Assembly: GCA_945870105.1 (NCBI GenBank)
Contig: CAMBRL010000001.1
Coordinates: 10,700 to 74,699 of the forward strand
Source: Chitinophaga pinensis
GTDB lineage: Bacteria > Bacteroidota > Bacteroidia > SXHM01
Direction: 5' to 3'
DNA length: 64,000 bases
Below the pieces are notes generated by a model. That model had not been told where the DNA came from. It saw only the letters and a list, made by a program, of their open reading frames with translations, and did no database searches. The stretch's first letter is position 1. Each line of letters starts with the position of its first letter. Both the position numbers and the translations under genes were made by a program. Of this stretch, positions 3,322 to 39,981 are shown piece after piece.

Positions 3322-3372
3322 GTTTTTTCAGAATGAAACACTATTGATTTTTCAGAAAACGTACACTATCGT

Positions 3373-3417
3373 CCCTCTCCTTATTTCCAAGGAGAGGGAT
3401 AAGAGGGTGAGGTCACC
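3373..3417. repeat. short palindromic intergenic element
   Basis: Hairpin CCCTCTCC-ttatttccaa-GGAGAGGG followed by ataagagggtgaggtcacc. This is related in style to the CCCTCCCC-ttt-GGGGAGGG hairpin at 3547..3565. Confidence 0.5.
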
Positions 3418-3506
3418 CCGATATTATCTTTTTGTAAACAAACAGCTTTGCCTTTGCCTCCCCCTTTTTTGTTTCCCCCTAATCTCTAACTTGCAGCCCC
3501 AAACCA

Positions 3507-6149
3507 ATGATGAATAAACTTCTTTTAACATTCATGCTGCTTTTCTCCCTCCCCTTTGGGGAGGGCTGGGGAGGGGCTGCCTTTGCCCAGTTCACCGACA
3601 ACTTCACCGACACCGACTTCACCGCCAACCCCTTGTGGACAGGCGAAACCACCAAGTTTGAAGTGGACGGAAGTTTCCAACTCCACCTCAATGCACCCGC
3701 CCTCAGTGATACCGCCTACCTCGCCACCGCCAACAGCGTTGTCTTTTCCGATACCATCCAGTGGGAGTTTTATTTCCGCATGAACTTCGACCCCAGCAAC
3801 AGCAACAACCTTAAAATATATTTAGTCAGCGACCAGGAAAACCTGCGCGGTGATTTAAACGGATACTACCTCCGCTTTGGTGAAAACGGCTCCACCGACC
3901 GTCTCAAATTCTTCAAACAAAGCGGCACCACCGGCACCGAACTCTTTGCAGGAACAGTAAACTCCTTTGGCATCAACCCTGCCGAAGGCAGAATAAAAGT
4001 AGAGCGCTTTCCCGATGGAACATGGAACTTTTATTCCGACAGCACCACCGGAAATAACTTTGCTCTGGAAGGAAGTGTGAACGATGTTACGTTCCTCACC
4101 ACCTCTTACTTTGGTGTATCCTGCAAATACACTAGCAGCAACAACGCAAACTTTTTCTTCGATGATTTTAATGTCTCAGGCTCCACCTTTGTGGATGATA
4201 TTTTGCCCGAAGTAACAGCCGTTTCCATCACCTCAACCAACTCGTTGGATGTTGTTTTCTCCGAAACCGTTAGTCAGTCCAGTGCCGAAACGCTCACCAA
4301 CTATTCAGCCGACAACGCACTTGGAAATCCCCAAACCGCCACGCGCGATGTAGCAAACGCCAACATCGTACACCTCACCTTTGCCACCAACTTTACACCC
4401 GGAACACTCTACACACTCACCATCTCCAACGTGCAGGATGCTGCCGGAAACACAATGCTTTCCTCACAACATCCCTTCGTCTATTATTTCCCGCAGCGCT
4501 ACGATGTAGTCTTCAACGAAGTAATGGCCGACCCATCTCCCTATGTCGGTATTCCCGAGTTTGAATACACCGAATTGTATAACCGCACACAGGTTCCCAT
4601 CAATGTAAAAGACTGGAAGTTCACCTATGGCACCACCACCAAACTCTTACCTGATGCCGTTATCCTCCCTGATAGTTTTATGGTGCTCACCACCGATGAT
4701 GCCTTTATTTACATGCAGGGCTACGGCAACGTAGTGCAGGTCGAAGGGCTTTCCACCACCGCCCTCACCAATGACGGGCAAACATTGTTATTGCAGGACA
4801 GCACGGGTAACATCATACACACATTGGTTTATTCCATCGACTGGTATGCCGACAATGACAAGGAAGAAGGCGGCTGGTCGCTCGAACAGATTGACCCCGA
4901 TTACGTTTGCGGTGAAGCCAGCAACTGGCGCGCCAGCAACAACATTGCAGGCGGCACACCCGGAAGAACCAATTCCGTTAACGCCCCCAACCCAGATGCT
5001 GAAGCACCCGAGCCGGAACGTGTGAGCGTTGTTAGCAACACTACCATCACCGTTTTCTTCAGCGAAAAGTTAGACAGCCTCTTTGCAATCAACACCGCCA
5101 ACTTTTTTATTGACAACGGAATTGCAACACCACTTTCTGCAAGCATTTCTTTTCCCGCGATGAACGTTGTTACACTCTCACTTGCTCAACCTCTCCAACT
5201 CCAAACCATCTACAACCTCTACGTAAGCAACATGCAGGACTGCGCTGCCAATGCTATACAAGACAGCATCGGGGTGCGCTTTGCCATTCCCGAATTCCCT
5301 GATACAAACGACATCATCGTAAACGAAATTCTCTTCTACCCTTATGATGATGGTGTGGACTTTGTTGAGGTGTATAACCGCTCCTCAAAAGTGATTGACC
5401 TCAAGAGTTTGCGCATCGCCAACTTCGATACCATTGGCGTTCCTCCCATCAACCAGAAAATAATTGCACCCCTCGGCTACCTGCTTTTCCCCGGTGAATA
5501 CCTGGTGCTCACCACTTCACCCGATGCAGTAAAGTCTGATTACTCAACTACTAATCCAAACGGCTTTCTCAAAGTTGTTTCCATGCCATCCTTCAACTTG
5601 GATGCAGGTTCTGTCGTCCTCAACGACACACTCGGCAACATCATTGACCTGCTCATTTACGATGAAGCCATGCACATCCCTTTGCTCAACAGCTTTAAAG
5701 GTGTTTCGCTCGAACGCATTGCATTCGACCGCCCTTCTTCTGATCGTACCAACTGGCACTCAGCAGCTGAAACCGTGGGCTTTGCAACACCTGCTTACCA
5801 AAACTCTCAGTTCGATGTTCCGCAAATCGAAGACAATCCCATCACCGTTGAACCCGAAATCTTTTCGCCAGACAACGATGGCTACAACGATGTTATAAAT
5901 TTCAACTACACGTTCGACACACCCGGTTTTATTGCCAGCATCACCATCTACGATGCCCGCGGAAGAACAATAAAAAAACTGTTCACCAATGAATTACTCG
6001 GCACCACCGGCACCATCTCCTGGGACGGAATAAACGAAAACAGCGAGAAAGCGCGCATCGGAGTTTACGTTGCGTTCATTGAACTCTTCAACACCTCAGG
6101 TGAGCAGAAGAACTACAAGAAGTCGTTTGTATTGGGCGGAAAGTTGTAG
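3507..6149 (+). CDS. large secreted protein with lamin-tail-like (LTD) domains and T9SS type B (gliding-motility-associated) C-terminal sorting domain
   Basis: Signal peptide MMNKLLLTFMLLFSLPF..AFAQ. There are two LTD-like segments (VVFNEVMADPSP.., IIVNEILFYPYDDGVDFVEVYNRS). The C-terminal IFSPDNDGYNDVINF motif is typical of type B CTDs. Confidence 0.8.
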   Translation: MMNKLLLTFMLLFSLPFGEGWGGAAFAQFTDNFTDTDFTANPLWTGETTKFEVDGSFQLHLNAPALSDTAYLATANSVVFSDTIQWEFYFRMNFDPSNSNNLKIYLVSDQENLRGDLNGYYLRFGENGSTDRLKFFKQSGTTGTELFAGTVNSFGINPAEGRIKVERFPDGTWNFYSDSTTGNNFALEGSVNDVTFLTTSYFGVSCKYTSSNNANFFFDDFNVSGSTFVDDILPEVTAVSITSTNSLDVVFSETVSQSSAETLTNYSADNALGNPQTATRDVANANIVHLTFATNFTPGTLYTLTISNVQDAAGNTMLSSQHPFVYYFPQRYDVVFNEVMADPSPYVGIPEFEYTELYNRTQVPINVKDWKFTYGTTTKLLPDAVILPDSFMVLTTDDAFIYMQGYGNVVQVEGLSTTALTNDGQTLLLQDSTGNIIHTLVYSIDWYADNDKEEGGWSLEQIDPDYVCGEASNWRASNNIAGGTPGRTNSVNAPNPDAEAPEPERVSVVSNTTITVFFSEKLDSLFAINTANFFIDNGIATPLSASISFPAMNVVTLSLAQPLQLQTIYNLYVSNMQDCAANAIQDSIGVRFAIPEFPDTNDIIVNEILFYPYDDGVDFVEVYNRSSKVIDLKSLRIANFDTIGVPPINQKIIAPLGYLLFPGEYLVLTTSPDAVKSDYSTTNPNGFLKVVSMPSFNLDAGSVVLNDTLGNIIDLLIYDEAMHIPLLNSFKGVSLERIAFDRPSSDRTNWHSAAETVGFATPAYQNSQFDVPQIEDNPITVEPEIFSPDNDGYNDVINFNYTFDTPGFIASITIYDARGRTIKKLFTNELLGTTGTISWDGINENSEKARIGVYVAFIELFNTSGEQKNYKKSFVLGGKL

Positions 6150-30909: not shown

Positions 30910-32016
30910 TTAGTTTTTCTGTGGTGTTGCTAATTTTATTACTTCGTTTGCGATTACTTCATCGGCATTTGCCAGTGCCAGCTCACCTATATTCTTTTTC
31001 AATAATTCCTGTTTTGCTTCATCATTAATCAACAACAGAATCTCATTCAGTAGTTTTTCTTTTGCTTCGCTGTCTTTAATCAGAATGGCTGCCTGCCTGG
31101 TAACTAAGGCCATTGCATTTTTTGTCTGATGGTCTTCAGCAGCAAACGGAAACGGAATAAGGATGGCCGGTTTTTTAACAATGCATAACTCGGAAATGGA
31201 GCTTGCTCCCGCACGTGACACCACTACATCTGCAACAGCATAAGCAAAATCCATTTTTGTAACAAAATCGTGTGCCTTAATTGTAGCTTTGTTTTCCACT
31301 GCCTTTTTTGCTGAAGGGAAAAACAGTTTTCCTGTTTGCCACAGCACCTGAAACTTCTCTCCAGACAACTTCTCAATGCTTGCCGCAATGCTTTCGTTAA
31401 TAGTTTTTGCGCCAAGACTTCCGCCAATTATGAGCAAGGTTTTTTTGCTTGTATCTAATCCGAAGAATTCAATTCCTTGTTCACGTTTTCCTTGTAAATT
31501 CAATATATCCTGACGCACCGGGTTGCCTGTTATTTTTATTTTATCAGCAGGAAAAAACTTGTCCATTTCATTATAGGCAACACAAATTCTGTTAGCTTTT
31601 TTTCCAAGCATTTTGTTGGTTATACCTGCATATGAATTTTGCTCCTGAATCAGGGTTGGTATTTTTTTTAACTGTGCTGCATACAACAACGGACCACTAG
31701 CAAACCCACCCACACCCACTGCTACATCAGGCTTAAACTCTTTTATAATCTGCATTGAACGCCAAACGCTTTTCAGCAATCGCAAGGGAAATGCAAAGTT
31801 TTTCAGTGAAAGACTGCGGTCAATTCCGCTGATGTCAAGCCCTTCAATTTTATAGCCTGCTGCAGGAACTTTTTCCATTTCCATTTTTCCTTGTGCTCCT
31901 ACAAATAATATTTCAGCCTCTGCATTTATTTTTTTTATTGCGTTGGCAATTGCAATTGCCGGAAAAATATGCCCGCCCGTTCCTCCGCCACTTATAATTA
32001 CTCTAAGCGATTGCAT
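30910..32016 (-). CDS. murG: undecaprenyldiphospho-muramoylpentapeptide beta-N-acetylglucosaminyltransferase
   Basis: GGGTGGHIFPA motif. I prefer the internal ATG (MQSLRVIISGGG) over the ORF-track start at 32055, which would overlap ftsW by 53 nt. Confidence 0.9.
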   Translation of the reverse strand: MQSLRVIISGGGTGGHIFPAIAIANAIKKINAEAEILFVGAQGKMEMEKVPAAGYKIEGLDISGIDRSLSLKNFAFPLRLLKSVWRSMQIIKEFKPDVAVGVGGFASGPLLYAAQLKKIPTLIQEQNSYAGITNKMLGKKANRICVAYNEMDKFFPADKIKITGNPVRQDILNLQGKREQGIEFFGLDTSKKTLLIIGGSLGAKTINESIAASIEKLSGEKFQVLWQTGKLFFPSAKKAVENKATIKAHDFVTKMDFAYAVADVVVSRAGASSISELCIVKKPAILIPFPFAAEDHQTKNAMALVTRQAAILIKDSEAKEKLLNEILLLINDEAKQELLKKNIGELALANADEVIANEVIKLATPQKN

Positions 32017-33199
32017 ATTCTTCCTCCGTTTTAGTTTCGCCTTCTTCAATAGCACGACTTACACTTAAAATAATTCCCACTGCAATGCTGGTAAACCATA
32101 ATGATGTTCCGCCCATGCTCACCAAGGGCAATGGTTGTCCGGTAACAGGAAATAGATTCACTGCAACCGCCATATTTATCATCGCTTGAAAAATGAGCAT
32201 GAAACAACATCCCAGTGCAAGCAATGCAGCGAATGTGTTCGGGCTTTTTACCACAATTTTCACACCTCTGAAAAGTAAAATTAGGTAAGCAAGCAAAACA
32301 GCAACACCACCGATCAAACCATATTCTTCAATTACAATTGCATAAATAAAATCGGAGTAGGGGTGCGGAAGGAAATTTCGCTGGTCGCTATTTCCCGGAC
32401 CTTTACCAAATAAACCTCCTGTAGCTACTGCAATTTTTGCTTGATCAGATTGAAAACTTGCATCGCTTATAGCAGCAGCATCTTCCTCGCTTTCTGCTGC
32501 GGTGAAATAGGTTTCTACACGCTGTTTCCAGGTTTCCATACGAGGAAAAACTTTTTCAACAGGAACTACATATGATATTCCAACTAACAGGGCAAAACCA
32601 AGAATTGCACAGCCAACCAAGGAGAGCAGGTGTTTTACATTCACTCTTCCGATAAACATTAATATCAGACATGTGATGAATAATATTGCTGAGGTAGAAA
32701 AGTTTGCAGGAAGAATTAATCCGCAAATAACAATTATGGGAACAATCATTGGTAAAAAGGCAGATTTTAAATCCTTGATTTCATCTTGTTTTACTGCAAG
32801 CAAACGCGCCAGATACATGATGAGCGCAAGTTTTGCAAAGTCAGAAGTCTGGAATGTCATTTCAATAATAGGAATGCTTATCCAACGGTTGGCAGAGTTT
32901 AAATTTACGCCCATTGCCAATGTGTAAATTAACATTGGAACTGCAAGAAGCATGGCAACCTGTGACAGACGAGAGAACCAGGTGTATTTCATCCTGTGTG
33001 TTACATACATTAAACCAAGCCCCAGGACGAGAATCGAAAAATGTTTAAACAAAAAATATTCTGTGTTGCCGCCTCTTGTTCTGAATGCCAGCATACCGGA
33101 AGAACTGTAAACTGCCATTACCGAAACGACAGAAAGAAACAGCACCGTGAACCAAATCACTTTGTCGCCTTTCAGATATTTCAGAACTGTGTTTACCAT
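32003..33199 (-). CDS. ftsW: SEDS-family peptidoglycan glycosyltransferase FtsW
   Basis: 10-TM FtsW/RodA pattern (PLPLVSMGGTS near the C-terminus); dcw context. Confidence 0.9.
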   Translation of the reverse strand: MVNTVLKYLKGDKVIWFTVLFLSVVSVMAVYSSSGMLAFRTRGGNTEYFLFKHFSILVLGLGLMYVTHRMKYTWFSRLSQVAMLLAVPMLIYTLAMGVNLNSANRWISIPIIEMTFQTSDFAKLALIMYLARLLAVKQDEIKDLKSAFLPMIVPIIVICGLILPANFSTSAILFITCLILMFIGRVNVKHLLSLVGCAILGFALLVGISYVVPVEKVFPRMETWKQRVETYFTAAESEEDAAAISDASFQSDQAKIAVATGGLFGKGPGNSDQRNFLPHPYSDFIYAIVIEEYGLIGGVAVLLAYLILLFRGVKIVVKSPNTFAALLALGCCFMLIFQAMINMAVAVNLFPVTGQPLPLVSMGGTSLWFTSIAVGIILSVSRAIEEGETKTEEEYAIA

Positions 33200-33218: not shown

Positions 33219-33785
33219 TTAACCTTTTAATGAATTTTTCAAGTTCATTACAGCATCTTTAAATTTATTTCCGCGGTCTTCGTAGCTTGTAAATAAGTCA
33301 TAACTGGCGCAGGCTGGAGAAAGCAACACGGTATCACCTTTCAATGCAAGACTGTTGGATTGACGAACCGCTTCATCTGCGTCAGCTGCAGCAACAATTA
33401 AATCAACATCGCTCATAAAAGTTTTGAAAACTTTTCGGTTCTCTTTTCCAAGACAGATAATCACTTTCACTTTGTCGCGTACAATTTCTTTTAGCATGGA
33501 ATAATCGCTGCGGTCATCAACACCGCCCACAATCCAGATGAGAGAGCGATCAATGCTTTCCAGTGAATACCAGGCGAGATCTACCGTAGTAGCTTTAGAG
33601 TCGTTGATGTAATCCACACCATTGATTTCGGTGATGAATTCAAGGCGATGTTCTGTGCTTTCAATATCATTCAAACTTTCGCGAATGATGTCATTTCTCA
33701 GTTCAAGCAACTTGTTGTACTCGTCAATCTTTTTTGCAGCTTCATTCCTGATTATGGTTTCGCGGTTTTTTTGGTTTTCTTGCAT
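33219..33785 (-). CDS. stand-alone Mur-ligase C-terminal domain protein, paralog of the MurD C-terminal domain
   Basis: Aligns by eye with MurD residues from [13 protein letters not shown] to the C-terminus. It keeps HRLE, INDSKAT, GDTVLLSPACASYDLF..YEDRG and lacks the P-loop/central and N-terminal domains. The likely ATG is 33785; the ORF track extends to 33902, overlapping murD. Confidence 0.7.
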   Translation of the reverse strand: MQENQKNRETIIRNEAAKKIDEYNKLLELRNDIIRESLNDIESTEHRLEFITEINGVDYINDSKATTVDLAWYSLESIDRSLIWIVGGVDDRSDYSMLKEIVRDKVKVIICLGKENRKVFKTFMSDVDLIVAAADADEAVRQSNSLALKGDTVLLSPACASYDLFTSYEDRGNKFKDAVMNLKNSLKG

Positions 33786-33816
33786 GGTTTTCAGGTTTGG
33801 TTGGTTGTGGTTTATA

Positions 33817-35154
33817 TTAGAGTTGCTGAACGGCTTTTTTAAACTGACGTCCACGGTCTTCATAATTTTCGAAGAGATCAAAACTTGCGCAGGCAGGAGC
33901 AAGCAGAACAGTGTCGCCTTTTTTTCCGAGGCGGTAAGAAGCTTTTACAGCTTCGGATGCGCTGGTTGTGTCAACAATAGTTTGCACCACATTTTTAAAA
34001 GTGTCGTGAATTTTTTTGTTGTCAACACCAAGACAAACAATTGCTTTTACTTTAAGGCGAACAAGGTCCATCACCATCTCATAATTATTGCCTTTGTCAA
34101 CACCACCCATAATCCATATGATAGGTGTGTTAATACTTTCCAGAGCATACCAGGCAGAGTTGATGTTGGTTGCTTTTGAGTCATTGATGAATTCAATTCC
34201 ATGAACTTTAGATACTTTTTCAAGACGGTGTTCTACATTTTGAAAATCGCTCAGACTTTCGCGGATGCTTTCTTTACGCAGGTCAAGCAGTCGTCCTACA
34301 ATGCCTGCTGCCATGGTGTTGTAGATGTTGTGTTTTCCCTGTAATGCTAGTTCGTGTATTGACATAATGAAGGTTTGGTTATTGATGGTTAGGTTTAAAT
34401 TCTCGTTTTCTAAGTAAGCTCCGGGCACTTTCTTTTCTTTGATACTGAAAGGAAAGAGCTGCGCCTGAAGTTTTTTTTTTGCCACCTGAGCGGCTATAAT
34501 TTCATCATCGTAGCAGTAGATGAATGCATCATCGGGCTGCTGGTTTTGTGTGATTCTGAATTTTGAATCAACGTATTTCTCCATCTTGTAATCGTAGCTG
34601 TCGAGATGGTCTTCAGTAATATTTGTAATTACCGCGATGTTGATTCTTGAATTATACATATCATCTAATTGAAAACTGCTTAATTCTATTACACAGTATT
34701 CAAAGTCTTTTTCAGTTAGCTGAAGCGCCAAGCTTTTCCCAACATTTCCTGCAAGGCAAACATCAACGCCTGCTTTTTCCAAAATATGATAGGTGAGAAG
34801 TGTAGTAGTTGTTTTTCCGTTAGTCCCAGTGATGCCGATAATTTTTGCTTTGGTATAGCGCAGTGCAAATTCTATTTCCGAAACCATTGAGATTTTTCGG
34901 CTTCTCAGTTCTTTAATCAATGGAGCTTTTTCAGGAATACCCGGACTTTTGATCACTTCCGAAGCATTCAGAATTAATTCTTCTGTGTGTTTTTCTTCTT
35001 CCCAGTTTATGGAGTGCTGATTTAAAATGTCTTTGTATTTCTGCTGTATTTTTCCTTTGTCGGAAACAAAAACATCAAATCCTTTTTTCAACGCAAGCAC
35101 TGCTGCGCCTGTTCCGCTTTCTCCTGCACCGAGTATGACTATTCTGTTACCCAT
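33817..35154 (-). CDS. murD: UDP-N-acetylmuramoylalanine--D-glutamate ligase
   Basis: [19 protein letters not shown]-loop [12 protein letters not shown]-terminal [17 protein letters not shown]. The ATG at 35154 overlaps the restored mraY stop (TAATG). The ORF track fuses it to mraY. Confidence 0.9.
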
Positions 35155-36405
35155 TATCTTAGTTTCAGCGTTACAATGGTTACTACAGCCAGCATTATTC
35201 CAACAATCCAGAAGCGTGTTACAATTTTTGATTCGTGGTAACCCAGTTTCTGGTAATGGTGATGCAGCGGAGCCATTTTGAAAATTCTTCTTCCTTCTCC
35301 GTATTTTTTTTTTGGTGTATTTAAACCAACTCACCTGCATCATTACGCTGAGATTTTCAATCAGGAAAATCCCACATAGAACAGGAATTAATAATTCTTT
35401 TCTGATACAAAGAGCAAACACAGCGATGATTCCGCCCAGAGAAAGACTTCCTGTATCGCCCATGAACACTTGCGCAGGGAAAGAATTGTACCACAGAAAA
35501 CCGATGCAGGCACCAACAAATGCAGAGATGAAAACCACCAGCTCGCCCGTACTGGGGATATACATTATGTTGAGGTAATCAGCGAAAACACTGTTACCCG
35601 AAACGTAGGCGAAGATGGCAAGTGCAACTCCAATAATTGCGGAAGTTCCGGTGGCTAGTCCGTCCAATCCATCCGTCATGTTGGCACCGTTCGAGACTGC
35701 TGTAACAATGAGTATTACAATCGGAATAAAAATCAGCCATGCCCAATCCATGTAGTTCTCTCCCATGAATTTTGCAAGTGATGAGTAATTAAACTCATTG
35801 TTTTTGAAAAATGGAATAGTTGTTTTTAATGATTTTTCAGGAGCTGAATAAGTTGGAACTTTCTGCATCAGTTCACCTTCCTGAGTCAATGACGCATAGC
35901 TTGCTGATTTTTCGCTCACTATTTTTTCCTTGATTACAACATTTTGATTGAAATACAGTGTTGCACCTACAATCAGCCCAATTCCAAACTGTCCGATTAT
36001 CTTAAAACGCCCGGCAAGACCTTCTTTATTCTTTTTGAAAACTTTGATGTAATCATCTAAGAAGCCAATTGCACCTAGCCATATTGTGCTGATAATCATC
36101 AGCAGGATATACACATTGTCTAATCGCGCAAATAGTAATGTCGGGATAAGAATTGCAGAGAGAATAATTAAACCACCCATGGTTGGTGTCCCTTTTTTCT
36201 GCAATTGCCCTTCTAATCCAAGGTCGCGAACAATTTCACCAACTTGTTTCAGTTGCAGGTATTGGATAATCCGTTTACCAAATACCATGGAGATAACCAG
36301 CGAAAAAATGATGGACATCGCAGCGCGGAACGAAATGTATTTGAACACACCTGCTCCCGGAAAATCAAAGGCTTTGTCTAAATATTCAAAAAGGTAATAC
36401 AGCAT
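35154..36405 (-). CDS. mraY: phospho-N-acetylmuramoyl-pentapeptide-transferase MraY, interrupted by a +1 frameshift in an A10 run (T10 on + strand, 35304..35313)
   Basis: Canonical N-terminus MLYYLFEYL.. and [12 protein letters not shown]. After KYTKKK the listed frame gives unrelated sequence. Removing one A gives [49 protein letters not shown]-stop. Confidence 0.85.
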
Positions 36406-36406
36406 T

Positions 36407-37867
36407 TTAAATTGCTTGTTTTAAACTTTCGGTTAAAATTTTCATATCGTCAAACGGATGTTTTACTCCACTTATTTCCTGGTATTTCTCGTGTCCTTTT
36501 CCGGCTAATAAAATGATGTCGCCCGGCTTTGCTATGATGCATGCAGTGCGGATTGCTTCTTTTCTGTCGGTGATGGAAACTGTTTTGCGGGCATCAGAAG
36601 GGTCAACACCTTTTTTCATATCTTCAATAATGTCTTCTGCTTTTTCAGAACGAGGATTATCAGAAGTGAGAATTATTTTGTCGCTCATCGTGCATGCAAT
36701 TTTTGCCATCAGTGGACGTTTTGCACGATCTCTGTCCCCACCGCAACCAACAATTGTAATAAGTGTTTCATTGCCTGTGCGGATATCGCGAATGCTTCTT
36801 AAGACATTTTCTAAAGCATCGGGAGTGTGAGCATAATCAACAACTCCAATAATATTGTTTCCTGTTTTTATGTATTGAAAACGGCCTTCAACAGCTTCCA
36901 GTGCGCTTATACCTGTGAGGACATCTAATTTATTCTCGCCTAACAAAACTGCCGTTGCATATACTGCCAGAAGGTTGTAAGCATTGAATGAACCAATGAG
37001 TCGGGTTAGAACTTCTTTGTTATCAATGTTCATCAATAAACCACTCAATTGATTTTCTATGATTTTTCCTTTGAAATCAGCAAGCCCTTTTAAACCGTAG
37101 GTCCACTTTTTTGCTTTGGAATTCTGAACCATTATTTTTCCATTCTTATCATCTGCATTTACCACAGCAAAAGCATTTGAAGGAAGTCCGGTAAATAAAT
37201 CCTGTTTGGCTTTTATGTAATTATCAAATGTTTTGTGGTAGTCTAAATGGTCGTGTGTGATGTTGGTGAAAACAGCTCCTGCAAAGCGCAAACCTGATAT
37301 TCTGTTTTGGTCAATAGCATGAGAACTTACTTCCATGAAACAGTATTTACAATCAGCTTCCACCATCTGGCTCAACAAACTATTTAAATTAATAGCATCG
37401 GGTGTAGTGTGTGTTGCGGTGAGGCTAACGGTGTTGATTTTATTTACAACAGTTGAAAGTAAACCTGTCTTAAATCCGAAATTCTGATACAAACGATAAA
37501 GTAAAGTGGCAACTGTTGTTTTTCCGTTTGTTCCGGTAACGCCTACCAGCTTTAGCTTTTCGGAAGGGTTGTCATAAAAGTTGGAAGCAATAATTCCAAG
37601 TGCATAAGAAGGATTTTTAACCTTTACATAGGTCACTTTTTTATCGCGCTCATCAGGAAGCGTTTCGCAAACAACCGCGATAGCACCATTCTCAACAGCC
37701 TGTTTGATGAAGAGATGGCCATCAATATTGCTTCCCTTTACCGCTACAAAAAGTGAATAATTTTTTGCCTGACGCGAATCAGTTGTCAGCATTGTGATGG
37801 CAATGTTTGTTGAGCCTGAAACATCCTCCAGTCCTGCTTTATACAATATGTCTTTAAGCAACTTCAT
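36407..37867 (-). CDS. murE: UDP-N-acetylmuramoyl-L-alanyl-D-glutamate--2,6-diaminopimelate ligase
   Basis: [11 protein letters not shown]-loop; DNPR motif (LTSDNPRSE) indicating DAP specificity. Confidence 0.9.
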
Positions 37868-39981
37868 TACGATAACTTCAGTATTATTTCACGTTCTAGT
37901 GTTATTGCTGTTCCTGCGTTGATACTTTGTTGAACAACTGTTCCGCGACCTTCAATTTTTACGCGCAAACCAAGATTTTCCAGAATATAGATTGCATCGC
38001 GAGCGCCCATGCCCAAAACTTTCGGAACAATACCATTGGTTTCTGCACTTTCTTTCAGTTCAATTTTGTTGCCTTTGTTTTCAGCGGTAACCCAACGAGA
38101 AGTATTTAATGTATCGTTGTTAAGCGGAACATTTAATTTCTGAAGTGAGGTAACCAGATCATTCTTGTTTCCACGCTGTGTATATGGAATTTTGTTTTCA
38201 GCAAGAATTTCAGTTGCCTCTAATTCTTTATGAATATCAAGGCGGCTGGAATAAACCTTATCAGCAATTTCTTTGAAAATAGGACCTGCAACAAGGTTTC
38301 CGTAGTAAACAGAATTGGAAGGAGCATTCACGATTACAATGCAGGAATACTTTGGATTGTCTGCCGGAAAGTAACCTACAAATGATGCCTGATAAGTTAT
38401 TTTCTGACCTTTGTAAATTCCTTCTTTTGCTATTTGTGCTGTTCCGGTTTTACCTGCGATTTTAAAGTCGGCATGTTTCAAATTCTTAGCAGTTCCGCTG
38501 TCCACAACACCTTCCATCATTCGTTTAACTTTATCAATTGTCTCTTGCGAACATATTTTTGGATTGATGATTTGCGTTTGAAATTCTTTCTCAACTATTC
38601 CGTTTTTTGTAATCTCTTTCACAAATTTTGGCTTCACCATTTTCCCGTTATTGGCAACGGCATTGTAGAAAGTCAAAATTTGCATGGGCGTCATCAGCAA
38701 CTCGTAACCAATAGACATCCAGGGCAATGAAACTCCGCTCCAGTCTTTGTCTTTAGGGTTTTTTATTTTCGGTTTTCCTTCGCCAGGAATTTCTAAGTCC
38801 AGCGGATTTTGCAGATTCATTGCATAAATTCTGTCAATGAATTTTTGCGGATTTTTAGAATAATATTTATCCACCATTCGTGAAATGCCAATGTTAGATG
38901 AAACCTCAAATGTTTCATGCAGTGTGATTTTTCCGTGACCACCTTTATCGTGATTAGAATCTTTCATGGGTTGCCCGTAGAAATAAATCACGCCTTTTTC
39001 TGTGTCAACTATTTCACTGGTGGAAGCTCCGTCTTCAAGCAGGGCAATAACTGAAGCGAGTTTAAAAGTTGATCCGGGCTCAGTGGCTTCGCCTATTGCA
39101 TAGTTGTAATACTCACCGTATTCTTCTGAGTTTTTGCTTTTGCTTAAGTTTGCGATGGCTCTGATTTCTCCGGTTTCCACTTCCATTAATATGGTGCAAC
39201 CGTGGTCGGCACCATGCTTTTGCAATTGTGTGAGTAGCGCATGTTCAGCCACATCCTGAATGTTGATGTCAATGGTGGTAACCAAATCCATTCCATCCTG
39301 TGGCTCTATTTCATTGTCATCGTTGAGTGGTTTCCAAACACCGCCTGCAATTTTTTGCATCAGTCTTTTCCCGCCAACTCCCGTGAGGTAACTGTTGTAA
39401 GCACCTTCCAAACCGATAGGCTGAATGCCCGGTCTCTCATAACCAATGGTTCGTGCAGCAAGTTCACGGAAAGGGCGTGAACGTTTGCTTTGCTGAAGTG
39501 TAATTAATCCGCCTTTGTATTTTCCGTTTTTGAAAATGGGAAACTTCTTCATTTTCTGAAGTTCAACATAGCTCACGTTTTTGCGAATAAGGAAATAGCG
39601 CTCTTTATTTCTTCTTGCTTCTTTCAGTTCGGATTTGTATTGCAGTTTTGATTTATCTCCAAAAAGATTAGCAAGGCAAAGTGCAAGCGAATCAAGATTA
39701 TCGTTAAAAATTTTATCGGTGATGGGGTTTGCGTAAACATCCATGCGCACTTCATAAATTGGAAATGAGGTGGCTAATAAACTGCCGTCTGTTGCAAAAA
39801 TATTTCCGCGTGCAGCTTCAATTTCGCGGTATTCGGTAGTAAGCGCTTCTGCTTTCGCTCTCCATTTTTCGCCTTGAATAAATTGCACGTTTACCACCTG
39901 TGCAATAATGGCAATACCAAATACACACATCATTGCATACAAAAGATACACACGCCACAATATGTCTTTCTTCGTTTCCAC
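37867..39981 (-). CDS. ftsI: penicillin-binding protein 3 / FtsI transpeptidase with C-terminal PASTA domain
   Basis: STFK, SSN and KTGT motifs; PASTA-like VPKVLGMGARDAIYILENLGLRVKIEG; GTG start. Confidence 0.9.
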   Translation of the reverse strand: METKKDILWRVYLLYAMMCVFGIAIIAQVVNVQFIQGEKWRAKAEALTTEYREIEAARGNIFATDGSLLATSFPIYEVRMDVYANPITDKIFNDNLDSLALCLANLFGDKSKLQYKSELKEARRNKERYFLIRKNVSYVELQKMKKFPIFKNGKYKGGLITLQQSKRSRPFRELAARTIGYERPGIQPIGLEGAYNSYLTGVGGKRLMQKIAGGVWKPLNDDNEIEPQDGMDLVTTIDINIQDVAEHALLTQLQKHGADHGCTILMEVETGEIRAIANLSKSKNSEEYGEYYNYAIGEATEPGSTFKLASVIALLEDGASTSEIVDTEKGVIYFYGQPMKDSNHDKGGHGKITLHETFEVSSNIGISRMVDKYYSKNPQKFIDRIYAMNLQNPLDLEIPGEGKPKIKNPKDKDWSGVSLPWMSIGYELLMTPMQILTFYNAVANNGKMVKPKFVKEITKNGIVEKEFQTQIINPKICSQETIDKVKRMMEGVVDSGTAKNLKHADFKIAGKTGTAQIAKEGIYKGQKITYQASFVGYFPADNPKYSCIVIVNAPSNSVYYGNLVAGPIFKEIADKVYSSRLDIHKELEATEILAENKIPYTQRGNKNDLVTSLQKLNVPLNNDTLNTSRWVTAENKGNKIELKESAETNGIVPKVLGMGARDAIYILENLGLRVKIEGRGTVVQQSINAGTAITLEREIILKLS

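Follow-up and report, generated by a model that had tools for sequence, protein, structure and literature searches.

What lies between murD and ftsW in a bacterial division and cell wall (dcw) gene cluster, where these two genes normally follow each other directly? The question is raised by a stretch of 64,000 nucleotides assigned to Chitinophaga pinensis (assembly GCA_945870105.1, contig CAMBRL010000001.1, positions 10,700 to 74,699 of the forward strand), here called the window, in which an additional open reading frame (ORF) separates murD from ftsW on the minus strand. An earlier note, made from the sequence alone, had read this ORF as a stand-alone paralogue of the C-terminal domain (domain 3) of MurD. 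Here we show that the ORF at 33219-33785(-) is a genuine protein-coding gene of the dcw operon and that its product is a stand-alone MurD domain 3 behind a hydrophilic helix of about 25 residues. The gene belongs to an unnamed family that fills the murD–ftsW slot in some of the Flavobacteriales, namely in Crocinitomicaceae/Fluviicola and a number of uncultured lineages, and that extends from MurD-like proteins, referred to below as class A, to forms that have kept the fold without any MurD ligand-binding motif.

A stand-alone MurD domain 3 between murD and ftsW

The ORF listing gives a mechanical frame of 227 aa that opens at a TTG codon (33219..33902, minus strand). Its upstream extension (33786..33902, minus strand) overlaps the 3' end of murD, is carried by none of the homologues compared and lies outside the gene. 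Since the close homologues are all 186-188 aa long and begin with MQEN, the start is placed at ATG 33785, as had been proposed from the sequence. The coding sequence, supported by homologues and by the selection analysis below, thus occupies 33219..33785 on the minus strand (188 aa plus stop), 31 nt after the murD stop and 19 nt before the ftsW ATG. The upstream neighbour, and parent of the paralogue, is a complete three-domain murD (33817..35154, minus strand, 445 aa) that scores 401.9 bits against the NCBIfam murD model TIGR01087, above the cut-off, and in which Pfam recognizes MurD_N, Mur_ligase_M and Mur_ligase_C, and also MurD-like_N.

The 188-aa product aligns by BLASTP with residues 287-445 of this MurD, with 86 of 159 residues identical (54%), 76% positives, zero gaps and an E-value of 5e-62, in agreement with the roughly half-identical alignment over some 155 residues reported in the earlier note. 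Pfam detects Mur_ligase_C (PF02875) only, the family that the note had proposed to look for, at residues 46-159 (33309..33650, minus strand), with 47.1 bits against a gathering threshold of 28.4 and the whole model covered (positions 1-127 of 127). The protein has no Pfam match to MurD_N, MurD-like_N or Mur_ligase_M (PF08245), and no GxxGKT P-loop is present in its sequence. Because it lacks both the domain that binds UDP-N-acetylmuramic acid (UDP-MurNAc) and the ATPase domain, the stand-alone protein cannot be a ligase, and the earlier claim to this effect holds. Similarly, TIGR01087 matches it with 146.8 bits, below the cut-off of 211.95, and through model positions 288-439 only. No Pfam or NCBIfam model dedicated to a stand-alone family matched the window protein, and the degenerate form of the family has no Pfam match.

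The predicted structure agrees with these assignments. An AlphaFold2 model, for which 33 sequences of the family were used (mean predicted local distance difference test, pLDDT, of 86) consists of a long N-terminal helix (residues 3-39) followed by an alpha/beta domain. In a Foldseek search of the PDB, the top 33 matches to this model were all MurD (probability 1.00, root-mean-square deviation (RMSD) 1.5-4 Å), and MurE, MurF, MurT, MurC and FolC ranked after them. The RMSD to MurD structure 7u35 is 1.5 Å over 139 columns, so that the structure prediction suggested in the earlier note, carried out for the monomer, returns the fold of MurD domain 3; sequence similarity, both domain models and structure all support the stand-alone paralogue that the note had described. 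The N-terminal hydrophilic helix, delimited from the model and from alignments, comprises residues 1-39 (33669..33785, minus strand). Residues 24-39 are the equivalent of the first helix of MurD domain 3 (LLELRNDIIRESL), and residues 1-23 have no MurD counterpart and vary between subfamilies. The stand-alone proteins are mildly acidic, as is the MurD domain itself, and their net charge is uninformative with regard to membrane or nucleic-acid binding.

A gene that directly follows murD and is homologous to its 3' part might be a functionless remnant of a partial tandem duplication, or an artefact of assembly, all the more so since the window sequence is imperfect and contains at least one homopolymer frameshift (in mraY). 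This explanation is refuted by synteny and selection. With X denoting the stand-alone gene, the arrangement murD-X-ftsW recurs in more than 20 independent assemblies. Contigs from ENA, NCBI, JGI and Logan that encode an identical or near-identical protein show the order ftsI-murE-mraY-murD-X-ftsW-murG-murC throughout, with a complete MurD of 445 aa, and the same synteny is found in GTDB species representatives (L009, L010, L014, L021, L051, L052, L055, L076 and L079). A gene X directly upstream of ftsW occurs together with a complete murD in the window and in loci L001-L007, L009, L010, L014, L021, L052, L055, L076, L079, L089-L092, L095, L102, L120 and L140. The frame of 186-188 aa is intact across many independent assemblies. 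Furthermore, the ratio of non-synonymous to synonymous substitution rates (dN/dS), calculated by the Nei-Gojobori method between the window and relatives at dS values of 0.7-1.9, is 0.006-0.068 for the stand-alone ORF, and the same pairs of genomes give similar values for the essential neighbours murD (also for its C-domain taken separately), ftsW, murG, murE and murC (0.005-0.105). Divergence of the two proteins runs parallel: identity to the relatives is 90, 86, 82 and 69% for the ORF product and 94, 85, 80 and 69% for MurD. In addition, an amino-acid identity of only 54% to the parent is not that of a recent copy, and the family is deep and diverse. An intact frame under purifying selection and a conserved position between murD and ftsW, both anticipated in the earlier note, are therefore confirmed.

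The premise that murD normally stands directly before ftsW is also correct. The length of the spacer that separates murD from ftsW was measured in 163 related Bacteroidota loci, drawn from GTDB species representatives and metagenome contigs. It is 188 nt or less in 126 of them (median 30) and 330-720 nt in the other 37, and every long spacer inspected contains one small ORF. Pattern scans of genomes and metagenomes with the family alignment retrieved mostly ordinary MurD, and give examples rather than a census.

From MurD-like proteins to degenerate forms

A search over 5.8 billion proteins was used to delimit the family, its best 120 matches being sorted into stand-alone proteins and pieces of MurD. 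Sixty-eight are genuine stand-alone proteins of 170-207 aa, which constitute class A. They possess a variable N-terminus of their own followed by F-x-x-LLELR, and the 'HNxYNSMAA' helix of MurD is missing. The remaining 52 are MurD pieces, namely C-terminal fragments that start at an internal methionine and longer partial MurD proteins. Many database proteins of 165-182 aa are such C-terminal fragments, easily mistaken for members of the stand-alone family, and were excluded. An apparent natural split of MurD into proteins of 253 aa and 182 aa (L008 5920-6010, GCA_030426955.1, JAUHXS010000004.1, a 334-kb contig), which might have accounted for the family, was likewise discarded, as it reflects a frameshift in a run of ten A residues. 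Class A members of distinct subclades share the same synteny, and they are 52-54% identical to the MurD C-domain of their own genome.

Comparison with MurD reveals which ligand contacts have been kept. Numbering follows the E. coli MurD sequence, in which counting reproduces the published positions S415, L416, F422, K348 and T321. In the E. coli enzyme R302 and D317 contact ADP, the alpha-carboxylate of D-glutamate (D-Glu) is held by T321 and K348, and its gamma-carboxylate by S415 and F422 (PMC9780078). H46-R47 of the window protein (33645..33650, minus strand) correspond to H301-R302 and are kept, HR being present in 68 of 68 class A proteins. Alignments likewise show that N61-D62-S63-K64-A65-T66 (33588..33605, minus strand), the equivalents of N316-T321, are kept in the window protein. 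Across class A, D317-S318 are retained in all 68 proteins, the K319 position holds K in 61 and H in 7, and the T321 position holds T in 52 and I or V in 16. S161-Y168 (SYDLFTSY; 33282..33305, minus strand) align with S415-F422, with S161 and Y168 kept. In contrast, alignment to the P. aeruginosa and E. coli enzymes places D91 (33513..33515, minus strand) at the position of K348, and this lysine is found in none of the 68 class A proteins (D 26, E 9, A 9, T 7, S 6, N 6, Q 3, P 1, V 1), whereas all 45 MurD fragments with a match to the motif have it. The window protein accordingly has T66, S161 and Y168 of the D-Glu-binding set (T321, K348, S415 and F422), and D91 in place of the lysine.

Since K348 is lost throughout class A and T321 in a quarter of it, D-Glu cannot be held as it is in MurD. 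The statement that the signature motifs of domain 3 survive is thus right for HR and NDS, and wrong for K348 and, in 16 of the 68 proteins, for T321. At 48 positions conserved to at least 85%, including HR and NDS, class A and MurD have the identical residue, and five positions are fixed to differing residues in the two groups (D69, S74, E115, V119 and S167).

The small ORFs of the murD–ftsW slot can be sorted into three grades, of which class A is the most MurD-like. Intermediates (L051/52, L055, L076, L079, L110, L120, L140 and L164) are 26-39% identical to the window protein, and drop K319, D317 and R302 in varying combinations (INDSISTD, INNSASTD, INDSRSIT and INDSGSTH; HNFE and HQLE). L010 and L014/L021 resemble MurD as closely as class A does, yet fall outside class A in the tree. 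The third grade consists of proteins of about 155 aa from Fluviicola and Crocinitomicaceae, which occupy the same slot, are annotated as "hypothetical proteins" and are recognized neither by BLAST nor by Pfam; they are encoded, for instance, at L036 631-1098 (Fluviicola sp.), in L038 and L050 (Crocinitomicaceae), and in L030, L041, L107, L109, L119, L128, L131 and L134. Their relationship to the family is seen in profile-profile comparison, with a probability of 78-83% against class A and, by hhalign, of 96% against the intermediates (E-value 4.7e-9, collinear across 149 of 155 columns). An independent AlphaFold2 model (pLDDT 86) points the same way, its 29 best PDB matches in Foldseek being all Mur-ligase C-domains (Mpl, MurC, MurE, MurD, MurF and FolC). 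Clustered at 90%, this degenerate subfamily alone numbers 294 proteins, and a search of 1.84 billion representative proteins with its profile yields 141 clusters at 50% identity.

All MurD ligand motifs are replaced in the ~155-aa grade by an invariant GK...GMD.F.W..P (GKLWGMDxFxW..P) and by FP....W (FPFxxxW), followed by LF near the C-terminus. The new motifs sit at the hairpin and loop positions of HRLE...INDSKAT and on the strand before GGxDK, that is, at the positions of the old active site, so that in the degenerate forms, too, conservation is highest on what was once the active-site face. The family is in consequence wider than the earlier note had stated: the MurD-like copies that it described stand, and the family reaches fully degenerate ~155-aa forms as well. 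In one uncultured member of the Flavobacteriales, a 393-nt murD–ftsW spacer contains an ORF of 122 aa (L012 4483-4851) without BLAST similarity to the family, which may be an even more reduced member or unrelated.

Carriers are recorded under the names Fluviicola sp. and Crocinitomicaceae, or as metagenome-assembled genomes labelled 'Flavobacteriales', 'Bacteroidia' or 'Bacteroidetes bacterium'. The degenerate form is also present in cultivable Fluviicola isolates (RefSeq WP_343748409.1 and WP_309280763.1), and the family members P0001 and P0048 occur in freshwater and marine samples. Among the loci examined, the gene is missing from Pedobacter, Mucilaginibacter, Flavobacteriaceae genera, Chryseobacterium, Chitinophagales, Bacteroidales and Owenweeksia, as well as from one Vicingaceae genome and some Crocinitomicaceae-like genomes. 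Seven of the latter (L023, L048, L104, L111, L113, L121 and L125) are Crocinitomicaceae-like in the FtsW tree and have a spacer of 9-63 nt without the gene, which suggests that it was repeatedly lost in such lineages. Public databases list family proteins as 'UDP-N-acetylmuramoylalanine--D-glutamate ligase', 'cyanophycin synthetase', 'glutamate ligase domain-containing protein' or 'hypothetical protein'; the first two names are wrong for the stand-alone family.

As regards origin, the stand-alone copies carry features specific to Bacteroidota MurD (WY.LE, IWIVGG and YEDRG.QF) and are 52-54% identical to Bacteroidota MurD versus 32-40% to proteobacterial MurD. The duplication of the 3' part of murD therefore took place within the Bacteroidota, and faster evolution ensued. 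The duplication is old, because only 54% identity to the parent is left. In a neighbour-joining tree of domain 3, whose deep support is weak, the MurD C-domains of Bacteroidota form one clade (84% bootstrap) with all stand-alone copies outside it, and class A is a clade of its own (87% bootstrap). In this tree none of the stand-alone copies clusters with the MurD encoded in the same genome, and independent recent duplications are thereby ruled out.

Partner, ligand or decoy

The neighbour to which the gene remains most faithful is ftsW, which lies directly downstream in every locus with downstream sequence. In the P0042 lineage, whose 176-aa protein is basal within class A, the dcw cluster has been interrupted on both sides of the pair, and four independent assemblies have the order ferritin-Hpt-X-ftsW-PD40 (L176 6994-11506, on ENA KRAE22-1 scaffold_1620, and L177 and L178). 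There, X and ftsW are 9 nt apart (10 nt as a stop-to-start coordinate), with no murD upstream and no murG downstream, and the encoded FtsW is 56% identical to that of the window over its whole length and scores best against the ftsW model. Because both genes stay adjacent where the cluster broke, they have left murD and murG as a pair; this co-retention, although a single event, is suggestive of ftsW as the relevant neighbour. Natural MurD–FtsW fusion proteins occur in Proteobacteria and Actinobacteria (PMC10214165), from which it follows that a MurD C-terminus beside the N-terminus of FtsW is tolerated.

All that the whole family has in common is its fold, its small stand-alone format and its place directly before ftsW. 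The D-Glu lysine is missing even from the conservative class A, and degenerate members dispense with all ligand residues. On these grounds we tentatively favour, as quite possible, a non-catalytic and ligand-independent protein-binding module whose preferred partner would be FtsW or the septal synthesis complex centred on it. The domain would mimic the C-terminal domain of MurD where the membrane machinery faces the cytoplasm, and might in this way link or tune the hand-over from cytoplasmic precursor synthesis to septal polymerization. The putative interface is the face that carries the NDSKAT and GGxDK loops in MurD, the most conserved one even in the degenerate subfamily. A more specific proposal, in which this Mur-ligase-derived pseudo-enzyme domain would be a dedicated cytoplasmic partner of FtsW that couples or gates precursor synthesis and septal polymerization, is conceivable, but we regard it as doubtful. 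The earlier note had listed a regulator, a decoy or scaffold for MurD, MraY or FtsW, and a protein binding D-Glu or a UDP-MurNAc-peptide. The loss of K348 argues against D-Glu binding, and the degenerate forms favour scaffolding or partner binding over ligand binding.

Several observations weigh against a binding module directed at FtsW. The link to ftsW rests on gene order; outside a single lineage the gene adjoins murD just as it does ftsW, and the one rearrangement counts as a single event. FtsW proteins from genomes with and without the gene display no distinctive difference in indels, motifs or tails, their differences being conservative substitutions confounded by phylogeny. No fusion of the degenerate domain to FtsW or to anything else is found among the 141 clusters, all of whose proteins are 190 aa or shorter. 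The gene is dispensable in some lineages, given that close Crocinitomicaceae-like relatives are without it. The MurD-like and degenerate forms may derive from one duplication or from several ancient ones, the deep support of the neighbour-joining tree being weak. Finally, HR, NDS and the rest of the 48 MurD-identical positions are not obviously needed by a pure scaffold, and their conservation indicates that class A may still bind a nucleotide or dock on the central domain of a Mur ligase.

It is from this last point that the main rival, a trans-acting regulator or decoy of MurD, draws its strength. The free domain 3 would replace MurD's own, or that of another Mur ligase, on the ATP-bound central domain and, without the D-Glu lysine, the resulting non-productive complex would throttle precursor flux. 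MigC (COG0523) of Acinetobacter baumannii, a separate protein that binds and modulates MurD, offers a precedent for a protein inhibitor acting through domain 2, although its fold is unrelated (a Zn-dependent GTPase) and it has no homology to the stand-alone protein (PMC12208494). The residues that face ATP and the central domain are precisely those retained in class A (H301/R302 and D317-S318 without exception, K319 in most members), the identity with MurD at conserved positions is in keeping with the same role, and the gene adjoins murD, with which it is presumably co-transcribed. However, a tethered domain outcompetes a free competitor through its effective concentration, and MurD's own domain 3, being covalently tethered, has a very large advantage of this kind. 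Moreover, diverged and degenerate members that lack R302, D317, K319 or any motif still occupy the same slot, and one lineage has the gene apart from murD and not from ftsW. We therefore consider a decoy unlikely.

Binding or sensing of a small ligand, by which the protein would report or buffer the level of a nucleotide, a UDP-MurNAc-peptide or a D-Glu-like compound, could explain why the S415 and F422 equivalents and the nucleotide-facing HR and NDS are invariant or nearly so in class A. It is made quite improbable by the degenerate members, which retain no ligand residue, and by class A itself, where K348 is lost in every protein and T321 in one out of four. Established MurD structures, furthermore, have their ligands bound between domains, and not by domain 3 alone. 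An alternative domain 3 that alters the amino acid added by MurD, or serves a Mur-ligase-like protein devoid of a C-domain, and so leads to a modified position 2 of the cell wall, would fit the fact that in class A only the readers of the alpha-carboxylate change (K348, and partly T321), that K348 often gives way to an acidic residue (D in 26 and E in 9 of 68), and that the other residues of the catalytic face are kept. Nevertheless, we judge it very improbable: the tethering argument applies to it as it does to a decoy, the K348 position varies and has not settled on any new residue, catalysis is beyond the degenerate members, and no ligase without a C-domain was seen in the loci examined, a search confined to these loci and not extended to whole genomes.

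Genomic setting, known systems and implications

The dcw cluster of the window is of the Bacteroidota type and runs on the minus strand in the order ftsI (37867-39981), murE (36407-37867), mraY (ending at 36405), murD, the stand-alone gene, ftsW, murG, murC, ftsQ and ftsA. The downstream neighbour ftsW (32003..33199, 398 aa) is identified from the ORF listing, a model match and synteny. In the window, a homopolymer within mraY has one A too many and shifts the reading frame (ten A residues at 35304-35313 in plus-strand coordinates, where the relatives L001, L009 and L089 read AAGAAAAAA, 9 nt), as a result of which mraY and murD merge into a single ORF of 862 aa (33817-36405, minus strand). Correcting the frame recovers a normal MraY C-terminus ending in TLKLR*, and the frameshift in this essential gene most likely arose when the homopolymer was sequenced. 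On another contig, L095, which carries a class A gene, an extra ORF of 88 aa without a Pfam match lies between mraY and murD (3337-3603). An Rfam scan of the window gave no matches, and a scan for sigma-70-type promoters and terminators around the gene stayed at chance level, the sigma-70 promoter type not being that of Bacteroidota.

Several known systems resemble the stand-alone protein in part. With MurD domain 3 it shares the fold (RMSD 1.5 Å to P. aeruginosa MurD), 54% identity to the neighbour's domain 3 and the motifs HR, NDSKAT and SPACAS..YEDRG. It differs from MurD in the lack of domains 1 and 2, and hence of a substrate-nucleotide site and an ATPase P-loop, in the absence of a K348 equivalent throughout the family, in the extra N-terminal helix and in its score below the NCBIfam murD cut-off. 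In the lipid II amidotransferase MurT–GatD, a Mur-ligase-type C-terminal domain is the docking surface for the partner protein GatD. MurT is among the structural matches of the stand-alone model (PDB 6h5e); it is, however, an enzyme with a central ATPase domain, related by fold only (15% identity). Similarly, PAP11, a MurE-like protein of plants, exemplifies a Mur-ligase derivative as a structural subunit, in this case of the plastid-encoded RNA polymerase, and appears as structural match number 38 (PDB 8r6s chain Q), but it is a full-length three-domain protein from a eukaryotic organelle, unrelated in lineage and context. The MurD–FtsW chimeras place the MurD C-terminal domain directly beside FtsW, as the gene order does here; there a full, active MurD is fused, whereas here a second domain 3, small and non-catalytic, is separate (PMC10214165). 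Although the domain itself is known, no description of a conserved stand-alone, non-catalytic MurD domain 3 as an extra dcw gene was found in the searchable literature, in line with the earlier note, whose author knew of none.

The dcw cluster is among the most conserved and most studied of bacterial gene clusters, and it is unusual for murD and ftsW to be separated there by a further gene under strong selection. The family is confined to mostly uncultured Flavobacteriales and its mechanism is one that we infer, but it is relevant to research on cell-wall synthesis and division. The graded series that leads, in a single genomic slot, from MurD-like proteins to fully degenerate ones provides a clean natural example of an enzyme domain becoming a non-catalytic module. 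Should the protein indeed bind FtsW, or the Mur enzymes, MraY or MurG, it would offer a concrete handle on an old question, that of a physical connection between the cytoplasmic Mur pathway on the one hand and the membrane steps and the divisome on the other, and of the form that such a connection takes. If FtsW proves to be its partner, the family would represent a divisome component of an undescribed kind, whose passage from enzyme domain to pure binding module can still be followed in living lineages.

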